Assembly (NCBI GenBank): GCA_041576165.1
Contig: JBFGLM010000030.1
Span: 1-60,337, forward strand
Source: Acidimicrobiia bacterium
GTDB taxonomy: Bacteria; Actinomycetota; Acidimicrobiia; Spongiisociales; Spongiisociaceae
Length of the DNA stretch: 60,337 nucleotides
Reading direction: 5' to 3'
Positions 2,767 through 21,732 of this stretch are shown here, piece by piece. Position 1 is the stretch's first letter. Each line of letters opens with the position of its first letter. The notes under the pieces are model-generated. The model searched no databases. It worked only from the letters and a program-made list of their open reading frames with translations, and was not told where the DNA came from. The position numbers and the translations under genes were made by a program.

Positions 2767-4182
2767 TCACCCAGCCGGCTCGAGTTGTACCGGATACTCG
2801 CGAACCGCAATCTGCGTGCCATCCTTCGCGGACACGGCCCAGGCGATCAGGGCCCCGGTCTGGGGTGTATCAACCGCATACGGCACGTCCACATCGAAGG
2901 ATGTCCACAGTGGCCCATCGGGAATGGAGATCTGCTCGCCGCCGGCGGTGACCGTCTGCTCGGTCACGATCAGACCGTCGGCATCGACCACCGCAACCTC
3001 GAATGTTGCTTCGAAGGCGGCCGTCCAACCCACCACACGAACCGGATTCGCCGCCTCACCGCCGTACGACGGCCTGTCGACGAATACGAGCGGAAGCTGA
3101 TCGAACAATTCTTCTCGGGAGTTGTAGTCCTCGAGGATGATGCCCTCTCCGCCGAGCACATCGATGGGGTCGCCGTCGAGTTCGAACGCCACCTCGTCGA
3201 CCGTTGAGTACTGCGTGAGAGTGAACACCACCTGCGCAACCCGGCCCAGCATCGAGGCGCTGCCACCCCCCGAAGCGAATGCCCCGGACAAATCGACGGT
3301 TGCCACACCGTCTGCGATGGCAATGCCCAGCAATTCGGTGGATGGGGGCACCTCAGTCGAGATCGGAGGGATCGAGGCAGCCTCGTCGCTGGTGGGACCC
3401 TCGAGTAACGCTCGCATTGTGAAAGTGGCCGGCATGGTTGTGGCCGCGATTCGACGATGCACCGGGACGAGGAAACCTCCCTGCCCCAGCGGATCGTCGC
3501 CGAGTGATCCAAGGAAGAAATAGACGGTTGTGGGCATCGGCACCGGTGGTATCACCGGATCCAATCCGAGAGCCCGGGCGAGGAAGGTGGCCATCTGGCC
3601 TCGGGTCACCGGGATCTGCGGCCGGAACGTGCCATCGCTGAACCCGATCGTGATGCCGTTCTCGGCGATGACGTTGATATTGGCCTCATGAACATTGACG
3701 TCGTCGTCACCAAACCAGTCGCGAGTCGCCGGATCCAGACCCGGCAGCGCCCGCGCCAAAAACGTGGCCATCTGGCCACGAGTCACCGGGATCTGCGGCC
3801 GGAACGTGCCATCGCTGAACCCGATCGTGATGCCGTTCTCGGCGATGACGTTGATATTGGCCTCATGAACATTGGCGTCGTCGTCACCAAACCAGTCGCG
3901 AGTCGCCGGATCCAGACCCGGCAGTGCCCGCGCCAAAAACGAAGCCATCTGCCCACGAGTCACCGGCTCTTGCGGACAGTACCGATCGTCGGTGCAGCCC
4001 ACCGTCAATCCAGCGGCAACGATGGCCTCGATCGCGGGCTCGTGCACGCTTCCGTCGTCGTCTATGAACGTGCCGCCTGGAGGAAGGTCACCCTGTCCGG
4101 CCGCAGGTGCAGCCGGTAGGGCCCCAATCAACACGAGGACCGTCGCAGCGGTCACGAACCTTCGTAGCTTCAACATGCTCAC
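2767..4182 (-). CDS. S-layer homology (3x SLH) protein with GerMN and Gmad2-like Ig domains
   Basis: Signal peptide; three F.DDD...E..I..I...G.T.G...P..PVTRGQMA.FLARAL units; LLEGPT..E / ATVDLS / QVVFTLTQY GerMN signature; AFEATF..AVVDADG C-terminal domain. Confidence 0.9.
   Translation of the reverse strand: MSMLKLRRFVTAATVLVLIGALPAAPAAGQGDLPPGGTFIDDDGSVHEPAIEAIVAAGLTVGCTDDRYCPQEPVTRGQMASFLARALPGLDPATRDWFGDDDANVHEANINVIAENGITIGFSDGTFRPQIPVTRGQMATFLARALPGLDPATRDWFGDDDVNVHEANINVIAENGITIGFSDGTFRPQIPVTRGQMATFLARALGLDPVIPPVPMPTTVYFFLGSLGDDPLGQGGFLVPVHRRIAATTMPATFTMRALLEGPTSDEAASIPPISTEVPPSTELLGIAIADGVATVDLSGAFASGGGSASMLGRVAQVVFTLTQYSTVDEVAFELDGDPIDVLGGEGIILEDYNSREELFDQLPLVFVDRPSYGGEAANPVRVVGWTAAFEATFEVAVVDADGLIVTEQTVTAGGEQISIPDGPLWTSFDVDVPYAVDTPQTGALIAWAVSAKDGTQIAVREYPVQLEPAG
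3587..3940. repeat. Near-perfect 177-bp tandem duplication (2 copies) encoding SLH repeats
   Basis: 3587-3763 vs 3764-3940; I count 4 substitutions, one non-synonymous (A/V). Confidence 0.92.
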
Positions 4183-16405: not shown

Positions 16406-16864
16406 CTACACGACCATCCAATCGGTCTGAACGGTGGTTTCCTCGACCGTACAGCGGATGCTGACTGGTCCGACGGGAACATCGAGGAACGTGAACCGGC
16501 CCAGGGAGTCCGACGAGGCGTTGCGCACCTCGCCCTGATAGAGGAGCTCGATCTCGGCGGCCTGCGGCGGGACCAGCTGACCTACGAGGCGGCGGGCGCC
16601 TTCCGCCATCACCACCACCTCGATCTCCAAGCCCGGCGCCCGGAAGGTCATCTGGCGCGCCCCGCCGGCAGAGCGAACTCCCGCCAGCTGATCATCAGCC
16701 GAGTCGAACACCAGCTCGGCGAGTTCCGCGTCGATGCTCCGCCAGGTGAAGGCGGCTCGGGCGAATTCGGTTGCCACCGCCGGAACCGGATCCAGCTCGT
16801 CGAGAGTGATACCCAGCTCGGCGAGCAGCTGTTCCTCACTCCAATGCGAAGCATCAACGTTCAT
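16406..16864 (-). CDS. Soluble ECF-associated protein (acidic helical N-terminus, beta-sandwich/carboxypeptidase-regulatory-like C-terminus); putative anti-sigma
   Basis: Overlaps the ECF stop by 11 bp; DPVP...ARAAFTWR.IDAELAEL.FDS, LVGQLVPP, D.LGRF.F..VP.GP; no TM segment. Confidence 0.75.
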   Translation of the reverse strand: MNVDASHWSEEQLLAELGITLDELDPVPAVATEFARAAFTWRSIDAELAELVFDSADDQLAGVRSAGGARQMTFRAPGLEIEVVVMAEGARRLVGQLVPPQAAEIELLYQGEVRNASSDSLGRFTFLDVPVGPVSIRCTVEETTVQTDWMVV

Positions 16865-17423
16865 CGTTCTGGTCCTTTCCTTCTGCCGCCTCCAGCAGCT
16901 GCCGGAGCCGCTTGATGCACCGTCCGCGGGTCGGACCGATGCTCCCTACCGGGCGGCCGATCAGTTGGCTGATCGTTTCGTAGTCGAGTGGTGGGTCGGC
17001 CGTCAGCAAGCGCATGAGCTGCTGACAGTCGTCGCCCAGTGTCTGAAAAGCGCGTGCCATGGCGGCCCGCTCCTCGGAGCTCATCAAACCGTCATCCACC
17101 GGGGCGGCTGAGACGTCTGCAACGTCGTACTCAAAAGCTGAGGGGGTTTGCCGTTTCATCCGATTCAGGGTCCTGATCGACTCGTTGCGGGCCGTGGTTG
17201 CCAGCCACGACGGCAGGCTCTGCGGGTCCCGGATTCGGGCGTGATGTTCAACCAGTCGAAGCCAGACGGTTTGTGTCACGTCGAGCGCCGACGCTTGATC
17301 CAGGCGAAACGAACGCACTACCGACCAGACGAGGCGCTCGTATCGCGCAACGATCGCGTTCCACGCCTCCTGAGAGCCGGTCGCCGCTTCCGCGAGCAGC
17401 TCCGCCACGGATTGACCTTCCAT
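16854..17423 (-). CDS. ECF sigma-70 factor
   Basis: AWNAIVARY, DVTQTVWLRL, WLATTARN (region 2); YETISQLIGRPVGSIGPTRGRCI (region 4). Start chosen from TAGGCT -10 8 nt upstream. Confidence 0.92.
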   Translation of the reverse strand: MEGQSVAELLAEAATGSQEAWNAIVARYERLVWSVVRSFRLDQASALDVTQTVWLRLVEHHARIRDPQSLPSWLATTARNESIRTLNRMKRQTPSAFEYDVADVSAAPVDDGLMSSEERAAMARAFQTLGDDCQQLMRLLTADPPLDYETISQLIGRPVGSIGPTRGRCIKRLRQLLEAAEGKDQNDER

Positions 17424-17553
17424 GGCCGCGCAGCCTAAACGTGTGCCCCGCAGGGCCGCTGTTTCCGATGTCATGGACAAATCTCCATTCCGCCCAGAAC
17501 AGGACTCCGGTCACCCCCGCCAAATACCCCCTTTTCGCCGGTTGTAGCGATGG

Positions 17554-19002
17554 TCACACGAGGTTGATGACCGTTCCCAAATCCGGAAGTCGGAAGAGGC
17601 CATGCCGGTGCACCACCCGATCGGCAGCCGTCGTTGCGTTTGATTTCGATTGCGCCATCTCGGCGGCGATCGCGGCGGCTACCTTCGGCGCCGCAAACGA
17701 GGTACCCGACCACATCGCAAATCCCTCGTAGTCGTCCGGGTCGTCACCCTCAGCGAGTTCGGGCCCGAAGTTGTGGTCGAAGAAGGTGGAGATGACGTCG
17801 ATCCCGGGGGCGCAGGCGTCGACCCACGAGCCGTAGTTGGAGAACCAGGCCCGCTCTGAGCAGTCGAGGGCTCCCACCCCAATCACGTTTTCGAGCGCAG
17901 CCGGCCAAGCCTTCCGACAGGTGTTGCTGTTGCCCGCCGCCGCCACGACCACGGCGCCTTGTGCTGTGAACTCCTCGATGACGGTGGCCAGCAGCGGCGG
18001 CGGCTGGTCGCCCTCTGTGAAACCACTGAGCGACATGTTGATGATTGCGTCGGACAAGTCCCTTCCGTTGCCGGCGAGGCGACGCCGGAACTGGTTGAGC
18101 GACGCGGAAATGGAGGCGTCGTCGCCGTCACCGAAACTGGTGAGGCATCCTTCGATCTCGACGTTGCAGGTCGGCGCCAGCCGTCGCACGATGCCGGCGA
18201 TGAATGTGCCGTGTCCGGCCTGGCGGTCCAGCAGACCGTCACCGTTCTCATCCATGAGGTCCTCGTCGGCGCCTCGCAATACAGCACCCTGCCGGAACCG
18301 CTCGACCACCTCCCATCGGCTGTGCACCGTCACATGCCGCAGGTCCGGATGCGCGGGCCGGCGGCGCCCGCCCCGGACGGTGGTCGTGGCCAGGCCGGTA
18401 TCCAAGACGGCCACGATCGGGTGATCCTTGGGTCTGGTGGAAGGCCACTCCCCCGGTTTGGTCACAGGAACCGCGTTGTTGATGTTGGGGTTGGCGAAGT
18501 AGGCCGGGTTGGCGAAATAGGCCGGGTTGGCGAAGTACGCCGGGTTGGCGAAATAGGCCGGATTGGCGAAGTACGCCGGGTTGGCGAGATAAGCCGGGCT
18601 GCCCTGGAAATCCTGGGCGAAGAAGACGTGGTTGAGCCACGCCTCGGACACGCTGCCGGATGTGCGCAGCTCGCCGACTGCTACCTCCGCCAGGGGCTGA
18701 TCAAAGTTGGCACCGTTCCTCAGGAACAGCAACGATCGTCGGCCCGGCACCCTGATGCTACGAGATACCTCGATTTCGCATCGCGCGAGCACTTCGGTGG
18801 CGGACCCTACTTCCGCCCTGGGCACGATCACCTGGCTGGTCCGATGCGTCGCACCGTCGCTGCTGACGGCGATGCCCCGGTGGGCCAGCTCCCACTGATA
18901 CAGGTTGGCCTGATATCTCAGATGCTCTTCCAGCGGCGCGCTCTCGCCGGGCGGCTCCGGTTGCGGCTCGTTCGTATATCCGTTCGCCTCCTGTTTCGCC
19001 AT
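17554..19002 (-). CDS. Cytoplasmic S8 family subtilase with hexapeptide-repeat insert
   Basis: VAVLDTG (Asp), GHGTFIAG (His), AAAGN (oxyanion), WSGTSFAAP (Ser); no signal peptide; AGGAGG RBS. Confidence 0.93.
   Translation of the reverse strand: MAKQEANGYTNEPQPEPPGESAPLEEHLRYQANLYQWELAHRGIAVSSDGATHRTSQVIVPRAEVGSATEVLARCEIEVSRSIRVPGRRSLLFLRNGANFDQPLAEVAVGELRTSGSVSEAWLNHVFFAQDFQGSPAYLANPAYFANPAYFANPAYFANPAYFANPAYFANPNINNAVPVTKPGEWPSTRPKDHPIVAVLDTGLATTTVRGGRRRPAHPDLRHVTVHSRWEVVERFRQGAVLRGADEDLMDENGDGLLDRQAGHGTFIAGIVRRLAPTCNVEIEGCLTSFGDGDDASISASLNQFRRRLAGNGRDLSDAIINMSLSGFTEGDQPPPLLATVIEEFTAQGAVVVAAAGNSNTCRKAWPAALENVIGVGALDCSERAWFSNYGSWVDACAPGIDVISTFFDHNFGPELAEGDDPDDYEGFAMWSGTSFAAPKVAAAIAAEMAQSKSNATTAADRVVHRHGLFRLPDLGTVINLV
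18487..18594 (-). repeat. 18-bp tandem repeat x6 encoding AY(L/F)ANP
   Basis: SP-AYLANP-(AYFANP)5-NINN; DNA units differ mostly at synonymous positions. Confidence 0.97.
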
Positions 19003-19033
19003 TGTGCAGACCTCCTACCGCGTCGATCGACCA

Positions 19034-19058
19034 GAGCAGTCGGACCTGGCGGTGATAC
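19034..19058 (-). promoter_or_regulatory. Putative ECF promoter of the subtilase gene (GTATCA-N15-GCTC)
   Basis: Same motif and spacing recurs at 21806-21830; lies about 30 nt upstream of the S8 start. Confidence 0.5.
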
Positions 19059-19077
19059 GTCTTCTAGCATCCCGGCG

Positions 19078-21732
19078 ATGTCAGGCGCCGACCCCAATCT
19101 GACACGGGCGCACTCGCTAGTCGAGTCCGCCCAGGGTGACCCGGCTGCAGTCAGAACCGAAGCCGAGGCAATCATCGAAGCTACACCGGGCAGCGCAGCA
19201 GCTGCGGTCGGATTGTGGGCCCGGGGCCTCGCCGAACGTGAACTGGGTGAGCTGGCCGTCGCGCTATCCAGCCTGGAACAGGCCGTCAGCCTGGCCAGCG
19301 AGCTGCAGCGATCGGTGGACGCGGCCCGCATGCGTGAGAGCCTGGCGTTCGCTTTGTTCCTCGCCGGCGAACATCAGGAAGCCCTGCACCAAACGGAGCT
19401 GGCGGCGCGGCATCTCACCGGACCGGATGCCGCCCGGCTGAGGATGCAACAGGGTTTGATCCAACAACGGATGGGCGATCTGGACGCTGCGCTCCGCTCG
19501 TATCGCCACGCACTGGCGGGGCTGTCGCGAGCCGGCGACAAACTGGGCGAGGTGCGGCTTCGCCTCAACCGATCGATCCTTCACTCGTATCGCTGGGATG
19601 TCAGCGCAGCCCTTTCCGACTTGGAACGTGCCCACCAGCTGGCGAAGGAGCTCGGCCAGCGGATGCTGGTCGCGGGATGCGAGCACAACCTCGGTTTCAA
19701 CGAGGGCCGCCGGGGAAACGTGCCGGCCGCGCTGGAATGGTTCGCACGGGCCCGGGAGAGCTACCGGGCCGCCGGTGTGGGGGGCGGCAACGCGGCAGTG
19801 CTCGAAGTCGATCATGCCCAACTCCTGCTGGATGTCGGACTCAGCGAGGAGGCACTGGCGACGGCGCAGCGTGCAGCCGACCTGTTGAGCGACGCCGGCA
19901 ACGAAGCCGACCGATCGGAGGCTGTACTGCTCGCCGCTCAGGCGGCCCTCGCGGCTGATCAGATCGAAACGGCCGGCCGGCTGGCGACGGAGGCCACGGC
20001 CTCATTCTCCCGGCAGCGCCGCGGTGCCTGGCGCACGCTGGCCGAGTACGTCGGATTGCAGGCCCGGTTGGCCGCTCTGATGAGCCGACCTGATCCGGGC
20101 GACGTCGATTCCCGGAATTTGGCAGCAGCCGCCCGCCGGGCCGCCGGCGCGCTGCGTCGTCACGGATGGCAGGTCGAGGCCTTACACGCCCTAACGATTG
20201 AGGCGCGCGCCGAGATCGCAGCCGGCAATCCCCGCCGGGCGCAACGGGTGCTCGACACGGCCGGCGCAGCCCGCCGCCGCGGGACTATCGATCAGCGCAT
20301 GCGGGCCTGGCACGCAACCGCGTTGCTGCGCATGATCGAAGGAAACCGACAAGGTGCCCGCCGGGCGGTGCGGGCCGGGTTGCGCCTGCTCGATGAACAG
20401 CGCTCGAGTCTGGGCGCCACCGAACTGCGGGCTTCCACGGCCGCTCACGGGAGGGACCTGGCGGAGCTGGGCGTGGCAGTAGCGCTGGCCGATGGCCGCC
20501 CGGACCAGCTGCTGGAGTGGGCCGACCGGGCCCGGGCCGGGGCCATACGCCTGCATCCTGCCACCCCGCCGCGAGACCGCCACCTGGCGGCGGACCTCAC
20601 GGAGCTACGGAGGGTCGAACAGGAAGCATCGGAGGCAGCTCTGTCCGGCCTGCCGACCGACCAGCTGATCCGGCGCCGGGCGGCGATCGAGCACCGCATT
20701 CGCAGCCGGGTACGCCAGCATCGGGGAGGAGGTGAGCCGCACACGTCCATTAGGGCCGACCGGATCCGGCACTACCTCGGGCATCGCCGCCTGCTCGAGT
20801 ACGTGGAACACCACGGGCATCTATATGCCGTGACGGCCGATGCCCGCGCGTACGCTCGACACGATCTCGGTCCGGTTGGGGATCTGGGTGAACTGATCGA
20901 CCGGGCCCGCTTCGACCTCAGTCGCCTGGCGCACGGTCGGGGCAGCGGTGCGGCGCAGGAGGCCGCCGAGCGTTCCTTGGCCGACGTGAGCCGCTTGCTC
21001 CAGGTCCGAATCCTCGACCCGATCGCGGCGAACGAAGAGGAGTTGGTGATCGTGCCCGCCGGCCGGCTCCACGGGATGCCATGGCGGGTCCTTCCGGCCC
21101 TGGCCCGGCGCGCCTTCACAGTGGCGCCATCCGCCCACGCCTGGCTCCAGGCACAGTCGCGGCAGCGGCGAGCACCGGCCGCCGGCATCCTGCTGATTGC
21201 CGGCCCCGATCTAGACCATGGCGCCCGGGAAGTCGCATCGATCGCGCGGCTCTACGACCGAGCGACGCGCCTGAGCGGTCGCAATGCCACGGTTGACCGG
21301 GCGCTGGAGGCGCTCGAGCTTACGCCCAGCGCCCACATCGTGGCGCACGGACACTTCCGGGCCGACAATCCGATGTTCTCATCCCTGCAGATGTCTGATG
21401 GTCCGCTCACCGTGTACGACATGGAGCGGCTCAAGCGGGTTCCCCAAACGATCACTCTGCCCGCATGCGACGCAGCCGTCACCGGCCTGCGGCCCGGCGA
21501 CGAACTATTGGGCCTGGCGGCTGCGCTGGTTGCGTTGGGCGTGCGAACGCTGATCGTGCCCCAGGTGCCTATTCCCGACGCGGATACTCCGGCGTTGATG
21601 CGCGCCTTGCATCGCAACCTGCTGCGCGGGTTGTCCCCGAGCCGGGCGCTGGCGGAGGCCGTGGTTACGGCCGACCGGTCCTCCCCGGCTGCCCGCTCTA
21701 CGGCGATGTCTTTCATCGTCATGGGGGCCTAG
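19078..21732 (+). CDS. TPR repeat - CHAT domain (caspase-fold, clan CD) protease
   Basis: Ala/Leu-rich TPR-like helices; LVIVP.G.LHGMPW, AHIVAHG (His), TLPACD (Cys), GDELLGL, FIVMG. Start at ATG 19078, 7 nt after TAGCAT. Confidence 0.92.
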   Translation: MSGADPNLTRAHSLVESAQGDPAAVRTEAEAIIEATPGSAAAAVGLWARGLAERELGELAVALSSLEQAVSLASELQRSVDAARMRESLAFALFLAGEHQEALHQTELAARHLTGPDAARLRMQQGLIQQRMGDLDAALRSYRHALAGLSRAGDKLGEVRLRLNRSILHSYRWDVSAALSDLERAHQLAKELGQRMLVAGCEHNLGFNEGRRGNVPAALEWFARARESYRAAGVGGGNAAVLEVDHAQLLLDVGLSEEALATAQRAADLLSDAGNEADRSEAVLLAAQAALAADQIETAGRLATEATASFSRQRRGAWRTLAEYVGLQARLAALMSRPDPGDVDSRNLAAAARRAAGALRRHGWQVEALHALTIEARAEIAAGNPRRAQRVLDTAGAARRRGTIDQRMRAWHATALLRMIEGNRQGARRAVRAGLRLLDEQRSSLGATELRASTAAHGRDLAELGVAVALADGRPDQLLEWADRARAGAIRLHPATPPRDRHLAADLTELRRVEQEASEAALSGLPTDQLIRRRAAIEHRIRSRVRQHRGGGEPHTSIRADRIRHYLGHRRLLEYVEHHGHLYAVTADARAYARHDLGPVGDLGELIDRARFDLSRLAHGRGSGAAQEAAERSLADVSRLLQVRILDPIAANEEELVIVPAGRLHGMPWRVLPALARRAFTVAPSAHAWLQAQSRQRRAPAAGILLIAGPDLDHGAREVASIARLYDRATRLSGRNATVDRALEALELTPSAHIVAHGHFRADNPMFSSLQMSDGPLTVYDMERLKRVPQTITLPACDAAVTGLRPGDELLGLAAALVALGVRTLIVPQVPIPDADTPALMRALHRNLLRGLSPSRALAEAVVTADRSSPAARSTAMSFIVMGA

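Follow-up and report, generated by a model that had tools for sequence, protein, structure and literature searches.

The subtilases (peptidase family S8) are a classic model of propeptide control. They are autoprocessed at the junction that follows the last propeptide strand, and the substrate-like tail of the propeptide normally runs into the active site. An iterated, selected and lineage-specific cassette at this junction is not part of that model. Here, we describe such a cassette, an in-frame array of six hexapeptides (AYLANP followed by five AYFANP), in an S8 pro-protease, P0001, that is encoded on a stretch of 60,337 nucleotides from an Acidimicrobiia bacterium (GenBank assembly GCA_041576165.1, contig JBFGLM010000030.1), hereafter the window. 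The pro-subtilisins (subtilisin E/BPN', Tk-subtilisin, and PCSK9) are like P0001, as modeled, in carrying a beta-alpha-beta-beta-alpha-beta propeptide on an S8 catalytic domain. However, they have a single junction tail and are mostly secreted, whereas the tail is iterated 3 to 17 times in the P0001 family. P0001 itself shows no visible signal sequence and, unlike the pro-subtilisins, is genetically tied to a TPR signaling protein.

Several other described systems share features with this locus. Intracellular subtilisin proteases (ISPs) are cytoplasmic S8 enzymes that, according to passages of PMC6220982, are silenced by a short Pro-plus-aromatic segment in the cleft, contained in one N-terminal [LVI]-[IFLV]-P-[YFH] motif (LIPY/F). 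ISPs thus have a single motif and no I9 domain, in contrast to the predicted I9-like domain and the array of P0001. An assignment of P0001 to the ISPs was rejected in view of this domain and of the unit itself, which, read cyclically (...F-A-N-P-A-Y...), places Asn before Pro. In Rap/Phr and the wider RRNPPA systems, TPR receptors read peptides of 5 to 7 residues, some precursors are multi-copy (tandem Phr propeptides), and the peptides are cut from their precursor by subtilisin-type proteases (passages of PMC11343458). Pair-specific diversification is common to RRNPPA and the S8 module. The RRNPPA peptides are nevertheless exported, cut outside the cell and reimported, they derive from a small separate precursor gene, and their receptors are Rap or helix-turn-helix proteins. 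In the S8 module, the "precursor" is the protease's own zymogen linker, and the TPR proteins have CHAT or cyclase-STAND outputs. RRNPPA membership was therefore dismissed, with no signal sequence seen in P0001 and with CHAT or cyclase/AAA domains on the partner TPR proteins.

Identical short peptides in tandem, of variable copy number, are also released by an S8-family protease from Kex2-processed repeat proteins (passages of PMC7329392 and PMC9769878). These proteins and the alpha-factor precursors differ in being eukaryotic and secretory, with dibasic sites between the units and a precursor separate from the protease. In the borosin-type enzyme OphMA, enzyme and peptide substrate are parts of one polypeptide; OphMA is a methyltransferase with a single C-terminal core, whereas P0001 is a protease with a multi-copy internal array. 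Taken by analogy, the array would work most like the autoprocessing tail of a pro-subtilisin combined with the multi-copy peptide precursors that TPR receptors read or S8 enzymes process.

The gene neighborhood has its own counterpart. In Craspase (Cas7-11, the TPR-CHAT protein Csx29, Csx30, and RpoE) and in the type III-B SAVED-CHAT cascade, proteolysis is the signal (passages of PMC10028731 and of bioRxiv 10.1101/2023.06.23.546230). As in these systems, a TPR- or sensor-linked CHAT protease is encoded in the window with a sigma factor of the extracytoplasmic function (ECF) type and a small partner protein, and the module resembles the CHAT/ECF-sigma proteolytic switches of CRISPR type III systems as those passages present them. 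It differs in its second protease, which is an S8 enzyme and not caspase-like, and in the peptide array, which the same passages do not report. No CRISPR-like array appeared in the Tandem Repeats Finder (TRF) output for the window, with the limit that TRF is not designed for CRISPR and that cas genes were not searched. The literature consulted, in which PMC7159879 was covered by passages and supplements fell outside the scope, contains no description of S8 junction arrays or of the module.

The junction array and its host protease

The first-pass annotation of the window listed six AY(F/L)ANP repeats with their codon variants at the prodomain-catalytic junction of a subtilase, and all of these are present on the minus strand. 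Read from 18594 to 18487, the first unit is GCT TAT CTC GCC AAC CCG (AYLANP), followed by the five AYFANP units in frame with the open reading frame (ORF) of P0001. The units vary synonymously (GCT/GCG/GCC, TAT/TAC, AAC/AAT, and CCG/CCC), and the only residue change among the six is L/F (CTC/TTC). TRF calls the array at 18488-18598 with a period of 18 (6.2 copies; score, 166) and a second time with a period of 36 (3.1 copies; 93% matches; score, 194). All other short-period arrays of the window score 56 or less. Units 2/4 and 3/5 form near-identical pairs, indicating that the array is partly a recent two-unit block duplication. The six-unit array recurs letter for letter, without indels, in contigs of public runs X1 and X3 from one study and X5 from a second study. 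This identity across two studies shows that the array is no assembly artifact. No copy-number variants were seen in the public contigs, which drop rare variants, so that a fixed number is not implied.

By sequence, P0001 qualifies as a peptidase S8 (subtilase) with intact catalytic residues. PF00082 matches with 77.9 bits (E value, 1.1e-21; cut-off, 21.8), and D201, H264, N358, and S435 are invariant in an alignment of 81 sequences. No hydrophobic N-terminal signal sequence was seen by eye, with no predictor used, and the protein is apparently cytoplasmic. The AlphaFold2 model built on the same alignment has a predicted local distance difference test (pLDDT) value of 86.3 and a predicted template modeling (pTM) score of 0.90. 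In this model, the N-terminal elements (E52-61, H62-74, E78-85, E89-95, H104-115, and E122-128) follow the beta-alpha-beta-beta-alpha-beta order, and the top Foldseek matches are unautoprocessed pro-subtilisin E (3whi; E value, 2e-16; 458 columns), pro-Tk-subtilisin, and PCSK9. Pfam Inhibitor_I9 gave no match in P0001, in which PF00082 was the sole family at an E value of <=1e-2 (0.01). The N-terminal domain is thus an I9-like propeptide by predicted fold, not by Pfam sequence match, and the array sits between this predicted propeptide and the catalytic domain. The last propeptide strand of the model, WLNHVFF, spans residues 122-128, with N124 and V126 nearly invariant in the alignment, and is separated from the array by AQ and DFQGSP. 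The order at the junction is therefore HVFFAQ, the degenerate DFQGSP, AYLANP, and AYFANP five times; on our own reading, DFQGSP appears to follow the x-aromatic-x-[G/A]-[S/N]-P pattern of the window units.

Other family assignments of P0001 were rejected. The mycosins (type VII secretion S8 enzymes) reach 73 bits with TIGR03921 against a cut-off of 278.75; PatA/PatG membership falls under the TIGR03895 cut-off, and no precursor gene was seen among the immediate neighbors, the only genes scanned for it; and pentapeptide-repeat proteins (PF00805) are represented by no Pfam match, with a period of 6 in the window and not a strict 5.

Selection on the units was assessed by counting distinct variant codons against each array's consensus in the 17 arrays for which DNA was at hand. 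These contain 65 synonymous changes on 70.3 sites and 19 nonsynonymous changes on 211.7 sites, a ratio of nonsynonymous to synonymous rates (dN/dS) of 0.10 (binomial P value, 1e-23). Nine of the nonsynonymous changes come from locus L038, where the parser merged two different arrays; without it, 62 synonymous and 10 nonsynonymous changes remain (dN/dS, 0.05). The window array alone has four synonymous changes and one nonsynonymous change (P value, 0.01), and the L041 array is near-homogeneous, with one variant in eight units. The synonymous excess within arrays means that every unit is held to one peptide by purifying selection. The array represents a short linear motif in multiple copies, kept by selection and not left behind by slippage, and the earlier proposal of selection on the peptide in place of fresh slippage holds for the window (4:1) as well as for the 17 arrays (65:19; dN/dS, ~0.1).

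Arrays and signaling partners across the family

Arrays were called by a rule of at least 2.5 copies with a period of 4 to 12 before the catalytic Asp, which misses short or irregular arrays (P0004, P0011, L048, and L054 were spotted by eye). Among the best 120 of 2913 metagenomic homologues, the N terminus sufficed for a judgment in 82, and arrays with 15 distinct units are found in 27 of these. Examples are NPAFA, NPAYA, SPVYA, TPVYA, NPLHA, NPFHA, and SPFHA, together with SPMFA, SPVFA, NPLYG, NPVYG, SPVYG, and HPGTFLP. A junction array of 3 to ~17 copies is present in 35 of the 37 Acidimicrobiia loci that were fetched (class and order samples), the exceptions being L042 and L062. The arrays of relatives always lie before the catalytic Asp and consist of Pro/aromatic units of 5 to 7 residues, with a period of 6 in the window and of 5, 6, 7, or 10 to 12 in relatives. 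Nearly all units contain a large hydrophobic or aromatic residue, then G/A, then N/S/T, then P. Within this pattern, the unit differs between orthologues (NPAFLG, NPSFFG, NPAYLG, SPAYA, NPFYA, NPLHA, and others); the nearest relative of the window, L026 (66% identity in the catalytic domain), has AFLGNP. The first-pass annotation had asked whether homologues lack a short motif at this junction, and they carry arrays at the same place.

The S8 gene occurs once in the window's own genome, in none of 28 other genomes of the same family (E value, <=1e-30), in 17 of 401 genomes of the class sample, and in 31 of 401 of the order sample, which takes in the own genome and one unpublished genome. Some CHAT-type loci contain tandem S8 gene pairs: L028 and L044 each have one paralogue with an array and one without, and L063 and L064 have two tandem S8 genes each, both without an array. 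In L044 (G533:C130), a run of N lies within the NPAYAG array, with a frame change across it. Short-read assemblies may often break or collapse such arrays, in which case database array counts are lower bounds.

The position of the arrays points to their origin. In CHAT-linked relatives, the end of the last propeptide strand sets the register in which the array begins, as in the line-ups NHV-LFGEP-AYLGNP-AYLGNP, NHV-FFANP-QYLGNP, NYV-YFAGP-SYFGNP-SFVGNP, NHV-FFTNP-TFLGSP, and NQV-FFGEP-VYLGNP. We read the strand end and its turn (aromatic-aromatic-[G/A]-x-P) as a putative "zeroth" unit that the arrays of these relatives would continue. The register with the propeptide strand indicates that the array is a tandem duplication of the propeptide C-terminal tail. 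The idea of a self-encoded multi-copy substrate, put forward in the first-pass annotation, gains support from this iteration of the tail in CHAT-linked relatives.

The S8 genes have two types of partner. The TPR-CHAT type comprises 23 of the 37 loci, namely, 22 with a CHAT match and L036, in which the sigma gene and the small ORF are present and the locus ends before the CHAT position; most loci of this type also carry the sigma factor and the small ORF. The remaining 14 loci are of a cyclase-STAND-TPR type, in which a gene for ~870 to 960 amino acids with Guanylate_cyc, AAA/NB-ARC, and TPR domains lies directly upstream on the same strand. CHAT, sigma factor, and small ORF are absent from all 14 of these loci. 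Arrays are found in 21/23 TPR-CHAT loci and 14/14 cyclase loci. Moreover, of five genomes searched, four (G374, G166, G300, and G218; 95 to 98% complete, all with cyclase-type S8s) have no TPR-CHAT homologue at an E value of <=1e-10. TPR is the only domain common to both partner types, and BLASTP between them finds only generic TPR similarity (E value, 0.025). The S8 protease and a TPR-bearing signaling protein, which is always its counterpart, make up a conserved two-part module.

A tree of 49 S8 catalytic domains, midpoint rooted for drawing only, places array-less CHAT-linked sequences on one side (9 rows) and an array-bearing clade on the other (40 rows; support, 95/96). Nested inside this array clade, the S8s with a cyclase partner group in a single clade (88/86). 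The simplest reading of this topology is that the array arose once and then persisted when the partner changed its output domain and kept TPR. The array marks a conserved, uncharacterized cytoplasmic module, either S8 with TPR-CHAT and an ECF sigma factor or S8 with cyclase-STAND-TPR, and its patchy distribution is typical of accessory stress or defense systems. PADLOC has no model for the module: for the S8 protease it returned only a generic "subtilase" match, which is weak (34.6 bits), and an IetS match, which is marginal, and it returned no match for TPR-CHAT, the sigma factor, the small ORF (ORF152 in the window), or the cyclase-STAND-TPR protein.

The cyclase-linked S8s (L032, L033, L037, L053, L054, L056, L058, and L060; also L001/L010) share a conserved Cys-rich GCCPPHP motif, a spacer that lies between the last propeptide strand and the array in this clade. 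In many cyclase-type S8s, a second Cys cluster (e.g., CGCC..CSCSG or GGCCCCGG) splits the array in two. A metal site or a redox switch is a possible role for these clusters.

Possible function of the repeated units

The reading that we tentatively prefer is that the S8 protease cuts its own iterated junction and that the partner reads the freed tail or peptides through its TPR domain, coupling the protease to CHAT/sigma or cyclase output. The zymogen would be held silent by its own propeptide. On firing, S8 would cut within its own iterated junction, the likely site lying, in each unit, where the small residue follows the aromatic or large hydrophobic one (between AYF and ANP in the window). 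The cut would free the propeptide and yield a tail of units or free hexapeptides, to be read by the TPR domain. S8 activation would then be coupled to CHAT proteolysis and sigma release through the sigma/ORF152 pair and, in the cyclase-linked clade, to cyclase output instead. Since subtilisin prefers a large P1 and a small P1' residue, the unit chemistry (a large or aromatic residue followed by a small one) fits this reading. We infer binding or cutting of the units by the S8 cleft; the reading of the units by TPR and the direction of signaling are speculative. If units are indeed cut out and read by TPR, the module would produce and amplify an intracellular signal in a new manner, and TPR-read units would provide a ready set of orthogonal peptide-receptor pairs.

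The reader of the units was sought by an exploratory Mantel test on 15 CHAT-type systems (13 without near-duplicates and 11 when restricted to hexamers). Unit edit distance correlates with TPR distance (r = 0.40 to 0.53), propeptide distance (r = 0.33 to 0.46), and CHAT domain distance (r = 0.25 to 0.43). The partial correlation between unit and TPR is 0.43 to 0.57 with the S8 catalytic domain held constant (permutation P value, 0.001 to 0.009), 0.37 to 0.38 with the CHAT domain held constant (0.012 to 0.034), and 0.26 to 0.31 with the propeptide held constant (0.02 to 0.09); in the reverse direction, the partial correlations are close to zero or negative. Covariation thus leans, weakly, toward the TPR domain as the unit reader. 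On the question raised earlier, whether the repeat varies and covaries with the TPR domain, the variation is confirmed, while the covariation, best with TPR, is exploratory and weak. A complex prediction of TPR-CHAT with S8 residues 120-185, run without controls, scored 0.00 and weighs neither way.

Two further leads on covariation and mimicry were dropped. The array was considered as a mimic of a site in the co-encoded proteins, but 4-mers of the own unit are no more common there than those of foreign units (means, 0.063 versus 0.064), with one match in 16 systems across the co-encoded TPR-CHAT, sigma factor, and ORF152. At the column of P0001 R363, an Arg that is nearly invariant in the C-R-P loop behind the oxyanion Asn gives way to L, M, V, or I, and this replacement is limited to the clade with NPFYA, NPFLA, or SPFLA units. 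It is possibly a cleft change that matches a bulkier unit. As covariation evidence it was discarded, being confined to one clade and so probably one event.

Several observations speak against cleavage and TPR reading of the units. In the AlphaFold2 model, the array (residues 133-172) has pLDDT values of 42 to 50, and the units are not confidently docked anywhere; even in the S8 of the short-array relative L048 (2.5 units; pLDDT, 91.3), the units reach only 79 and then 55. Some units have Pro directly after the aromatic residue (FPNPGA, TPYPGG, and PPTPAA). Subtilisins cut aromatic-Pro bonds poorly, and units of the FPNPGA type look more like uncleavable pseudo-substrates. In addition, if NHV aligns with DHV of subtilisin BPN', the canonical cut would fall before the conserved Pro, at a bond that is unlikely to be scissile. 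Arrays are not universal either: 55 of the 82 assessable homologues have none by the rule, a few of them with short or irregular arrays, and distant CHAT-linked S8s (L003-L009, from Actinoallomurus, Herbidospora, Nonomuraea, and uncultured Actinomycetota and Acidimicrobiia metagenome-assembled genomes) lack them, as do the CHAT-linked L042, L062, L063, and L064, so that a TPR partner does not require an array. Furthermore, the distance between S8 catalytic domains tracks the unit least (r = 0.01 to 0.32), partial Mantel tests exaggerate significance on 11 to 15 related systems, and two rapidly changing sequences, here a region and the unit, may track each other through their rate alone.

Part of this evidence feeds the best-surviving alternative, which we regard as unlikely: an intramolecular device, either a pseudo-substrate array or a staged autoprocessing "fuse," in which the units fill the cleft in turn and TPR is not the reader. 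The array copies the propeptide tail, and an enzyme without a visible signal sequence would be cytoplasmic and so need tight control. ISPs are blocked by a Pro-centered [LVI]-[IFLV]-P-[YFH] motif whose Pro puts the scissile bond beyond reach (passages of PMC6220982), and units such as FPNPGA and TPYPGG place Pro right behind the aromatic residue, as in the ISP block. However, the cleft takes one unit at once, yet every unit is under strong purifying selection and copy numbers rise to ~17. The window unit is also off the ISP motif (Asn before Pro), its sequence tracks the S8 catalytic domain least and TPR best in the exploratory comparison, and the model docks no unit confidently. Should the units nevertheless be pseudo-substrates, they would constitute a new solution for keeping a cytoplasmic subtilase latent.

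More doubtful again is an extension of the preferred reading, in which the zymogen linker would be a store of an intracellular peptide messenger. One fired S8 would cut its own array and those of neighboring zymogens in a trans-autocatalytic burst, each molecule yielding n identical peptides of 5 to 6 residues. These would bind the TPR sensor of the partner as ligands and switch on the CHAT protease (and through it ECF sigma release) or the STAND-cyclase, and unit and TPR would codiversify like pherotypes, possibly under pressure from phage mimics. To our knowledge, a protease-encoded, ribosomal, cytoplasmic peptide second messenger has not been described.

An improbable explanation is that the array is a passive spacer, a slippage-prone, Pro-rich, flexible linker whose length matters and whose sequence does not. 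Low pLDDT over the array, a copy number varying from 3 to 17, the period-36 block duplication in the window, and the homogeneous L041 array (one variant in eight units) are in keeping with a spacer. They are opposed by the within-array dN/dS of ~0.05 to 0.1, by the recurrence of the aromatic/Pro/small-residue pattern over at least 15 different units, and by the register of the array with the propeptide strand.

Quite improbable, too, is that the CHAT protease docks on or cleaves the units and so would free S8 from its propeptide in a protease cascade. The S8 and TPR-CHAT genes are divergent and kept together, and CHAT-started cascades with an ECF sigma factor are known in CRISPR type III (passages of bioRxiv 10.1101/2023.06.23.546230 and PMC10028731). 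Against such a role, all 14 cyclase-STAND-TPR-linked S8s keep arrays with no CHAT nearby, G374, G166, G300, and G218 lack a TPR-CHAT homologue genome-wide at the threshold given above, and array-less CHAT-linked S8s exist. The same three observations (14/37 loci in the CHAT-free array clade, 4/5 genomes, and the array-less S8s) weaken the CHAT-specific roles proposed in the first-pass annotation.

The least probable alternative is a product akin to peptides that are ribosomally synthesized and posttranslationally modified (RiPPs), with a PatG-type S8 that would cut after Pro and cyclize the units to penta- or hexapeptides, the enzyme being fused to its multi-core precursor. PatG cuts between Pro or thiazoline and AYDG, the window units end in Pro with the next beginning AY, the units are hypervariable among orthologues but the same throughout one array, like multi-core precursors, and a weak PatA/PatG-family match exists; yet this match (TIGR03895) reaches 31 bits where the cut-off is 421.05, the 50 best Foldseek matches listed include no PatG or PatA chain, many units open with residues other than AY (NPLHA, NPFYA, and TPYPGG), no conserved export or tailoring genes lie beside S8, where the conserved neighbors are signaling proteins, and all components appear cytoplasmic. 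As family membership, the PatG analogy drawn earlier thus fails. The first-pass interpretation was correct as to the kind of element, a multi-copy substrate or signal that is self-encoded and under selection; its CHAT- and PatG-specific parts are probably wrong, and its TPR-ligand part is tentative.

Gene neighborhood and further observations

Table 1. Coordinates of the array, its host protease, and the neighboring genes in the window.
Feature	Position	Strand	Basis
Tandem array, AYLANP + 5 x AYFANP, six 18-nt units	18487..18594	-	P0001 residues 137-172
Degenerate leading unit DFQGSP	18595..18612	-	Residues 131-136, read from translation
WLNHVFFAQ, last predicted propeptide strand and (P)NHV-aromatic-aromatic-[A/G] motif	18613..18639	-	DSSP E122-128 in AlphaFold2 model
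Predicted I9-like propeptide domain, residues ~44-128	18619..18873	-	AlphaFold2, pLDDT blocks 87-96
S8 catalytic domain, residues 194-450, with D201, H264, N358, S435	17653..18423	-	PF00082 match
Whole S8 pro-protease gene (P0001), 482 aa	17554..19002	-	ORF translation
TPR-CHAT gene, 884 aa from ATG 19078, divergent from S8	19078..21732	+	PF12770, TPR_12
ECF-type sigma factor, directly downstream of S8 gene	16854..17480	-	TIGR02937, Sigma70_r2
152-aa ORF (ORF152)	16406..16864	-	Synteny with sigma gene in CHAT-type loci

The TPR-CHAT protein of the window matches PF12770 (CHAT) with 101.6 bits and TPR_12 with 38.8 bits. Its candidate caspase-like residues H773 and C813 are invariant in the alignment; they are numbered from 19030, which is 16 too high relative to ATG 19078, the only start codon of the gene. 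The start codons of the divergent S8 and TPR-CHAT genes are only 75 bp apart (19003-19077), which implies that their promoters overlap or reach into coding sequences.

The sigma factor matches TIGR02937 with 75.6 bits (cut-off, 42.9). ORF152 has no curated family, its CarboxypepD_reg match of 20.6 bits being under the cut-off of 32.3, and its atlas neighbors are actinobacterial clusters without names. It is a candidate cytoplasmic anti-sigma factor or CHAT substrate. The two genes overlap by 11 nt (16854-16864, minus strand), which suggests translational coupling, and the pair is adjacent in most CHAT-type loci.

Outside the array, the window's own genome has one exact in-frame AYFANP (G000:C12:80642-80658, minus strand), in a succinate-dehydrogenase/fumarate-reductase-like flavoprotein (...KRGAYFANPCFTQIHPT...). 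Rough chance expectation is 0.08 matches, and the reversed-pattern control gave 0. A one-mismatch AYFGNP is found in a biotin-carboxylase-like protein (C25:26563-26579, minus strand). Both occur once, in housekeeping enzymes, and are probably fortuitous matches to conserved motifs of these enzymes. Finally, the strongest repeat of the window by far (TRF score, 711) lies at 3587-4062 and has a 177-nt unit, equal to 59 codons if coding, in 2.1 copies (matches, 96%) or 2.7 copies (84%).

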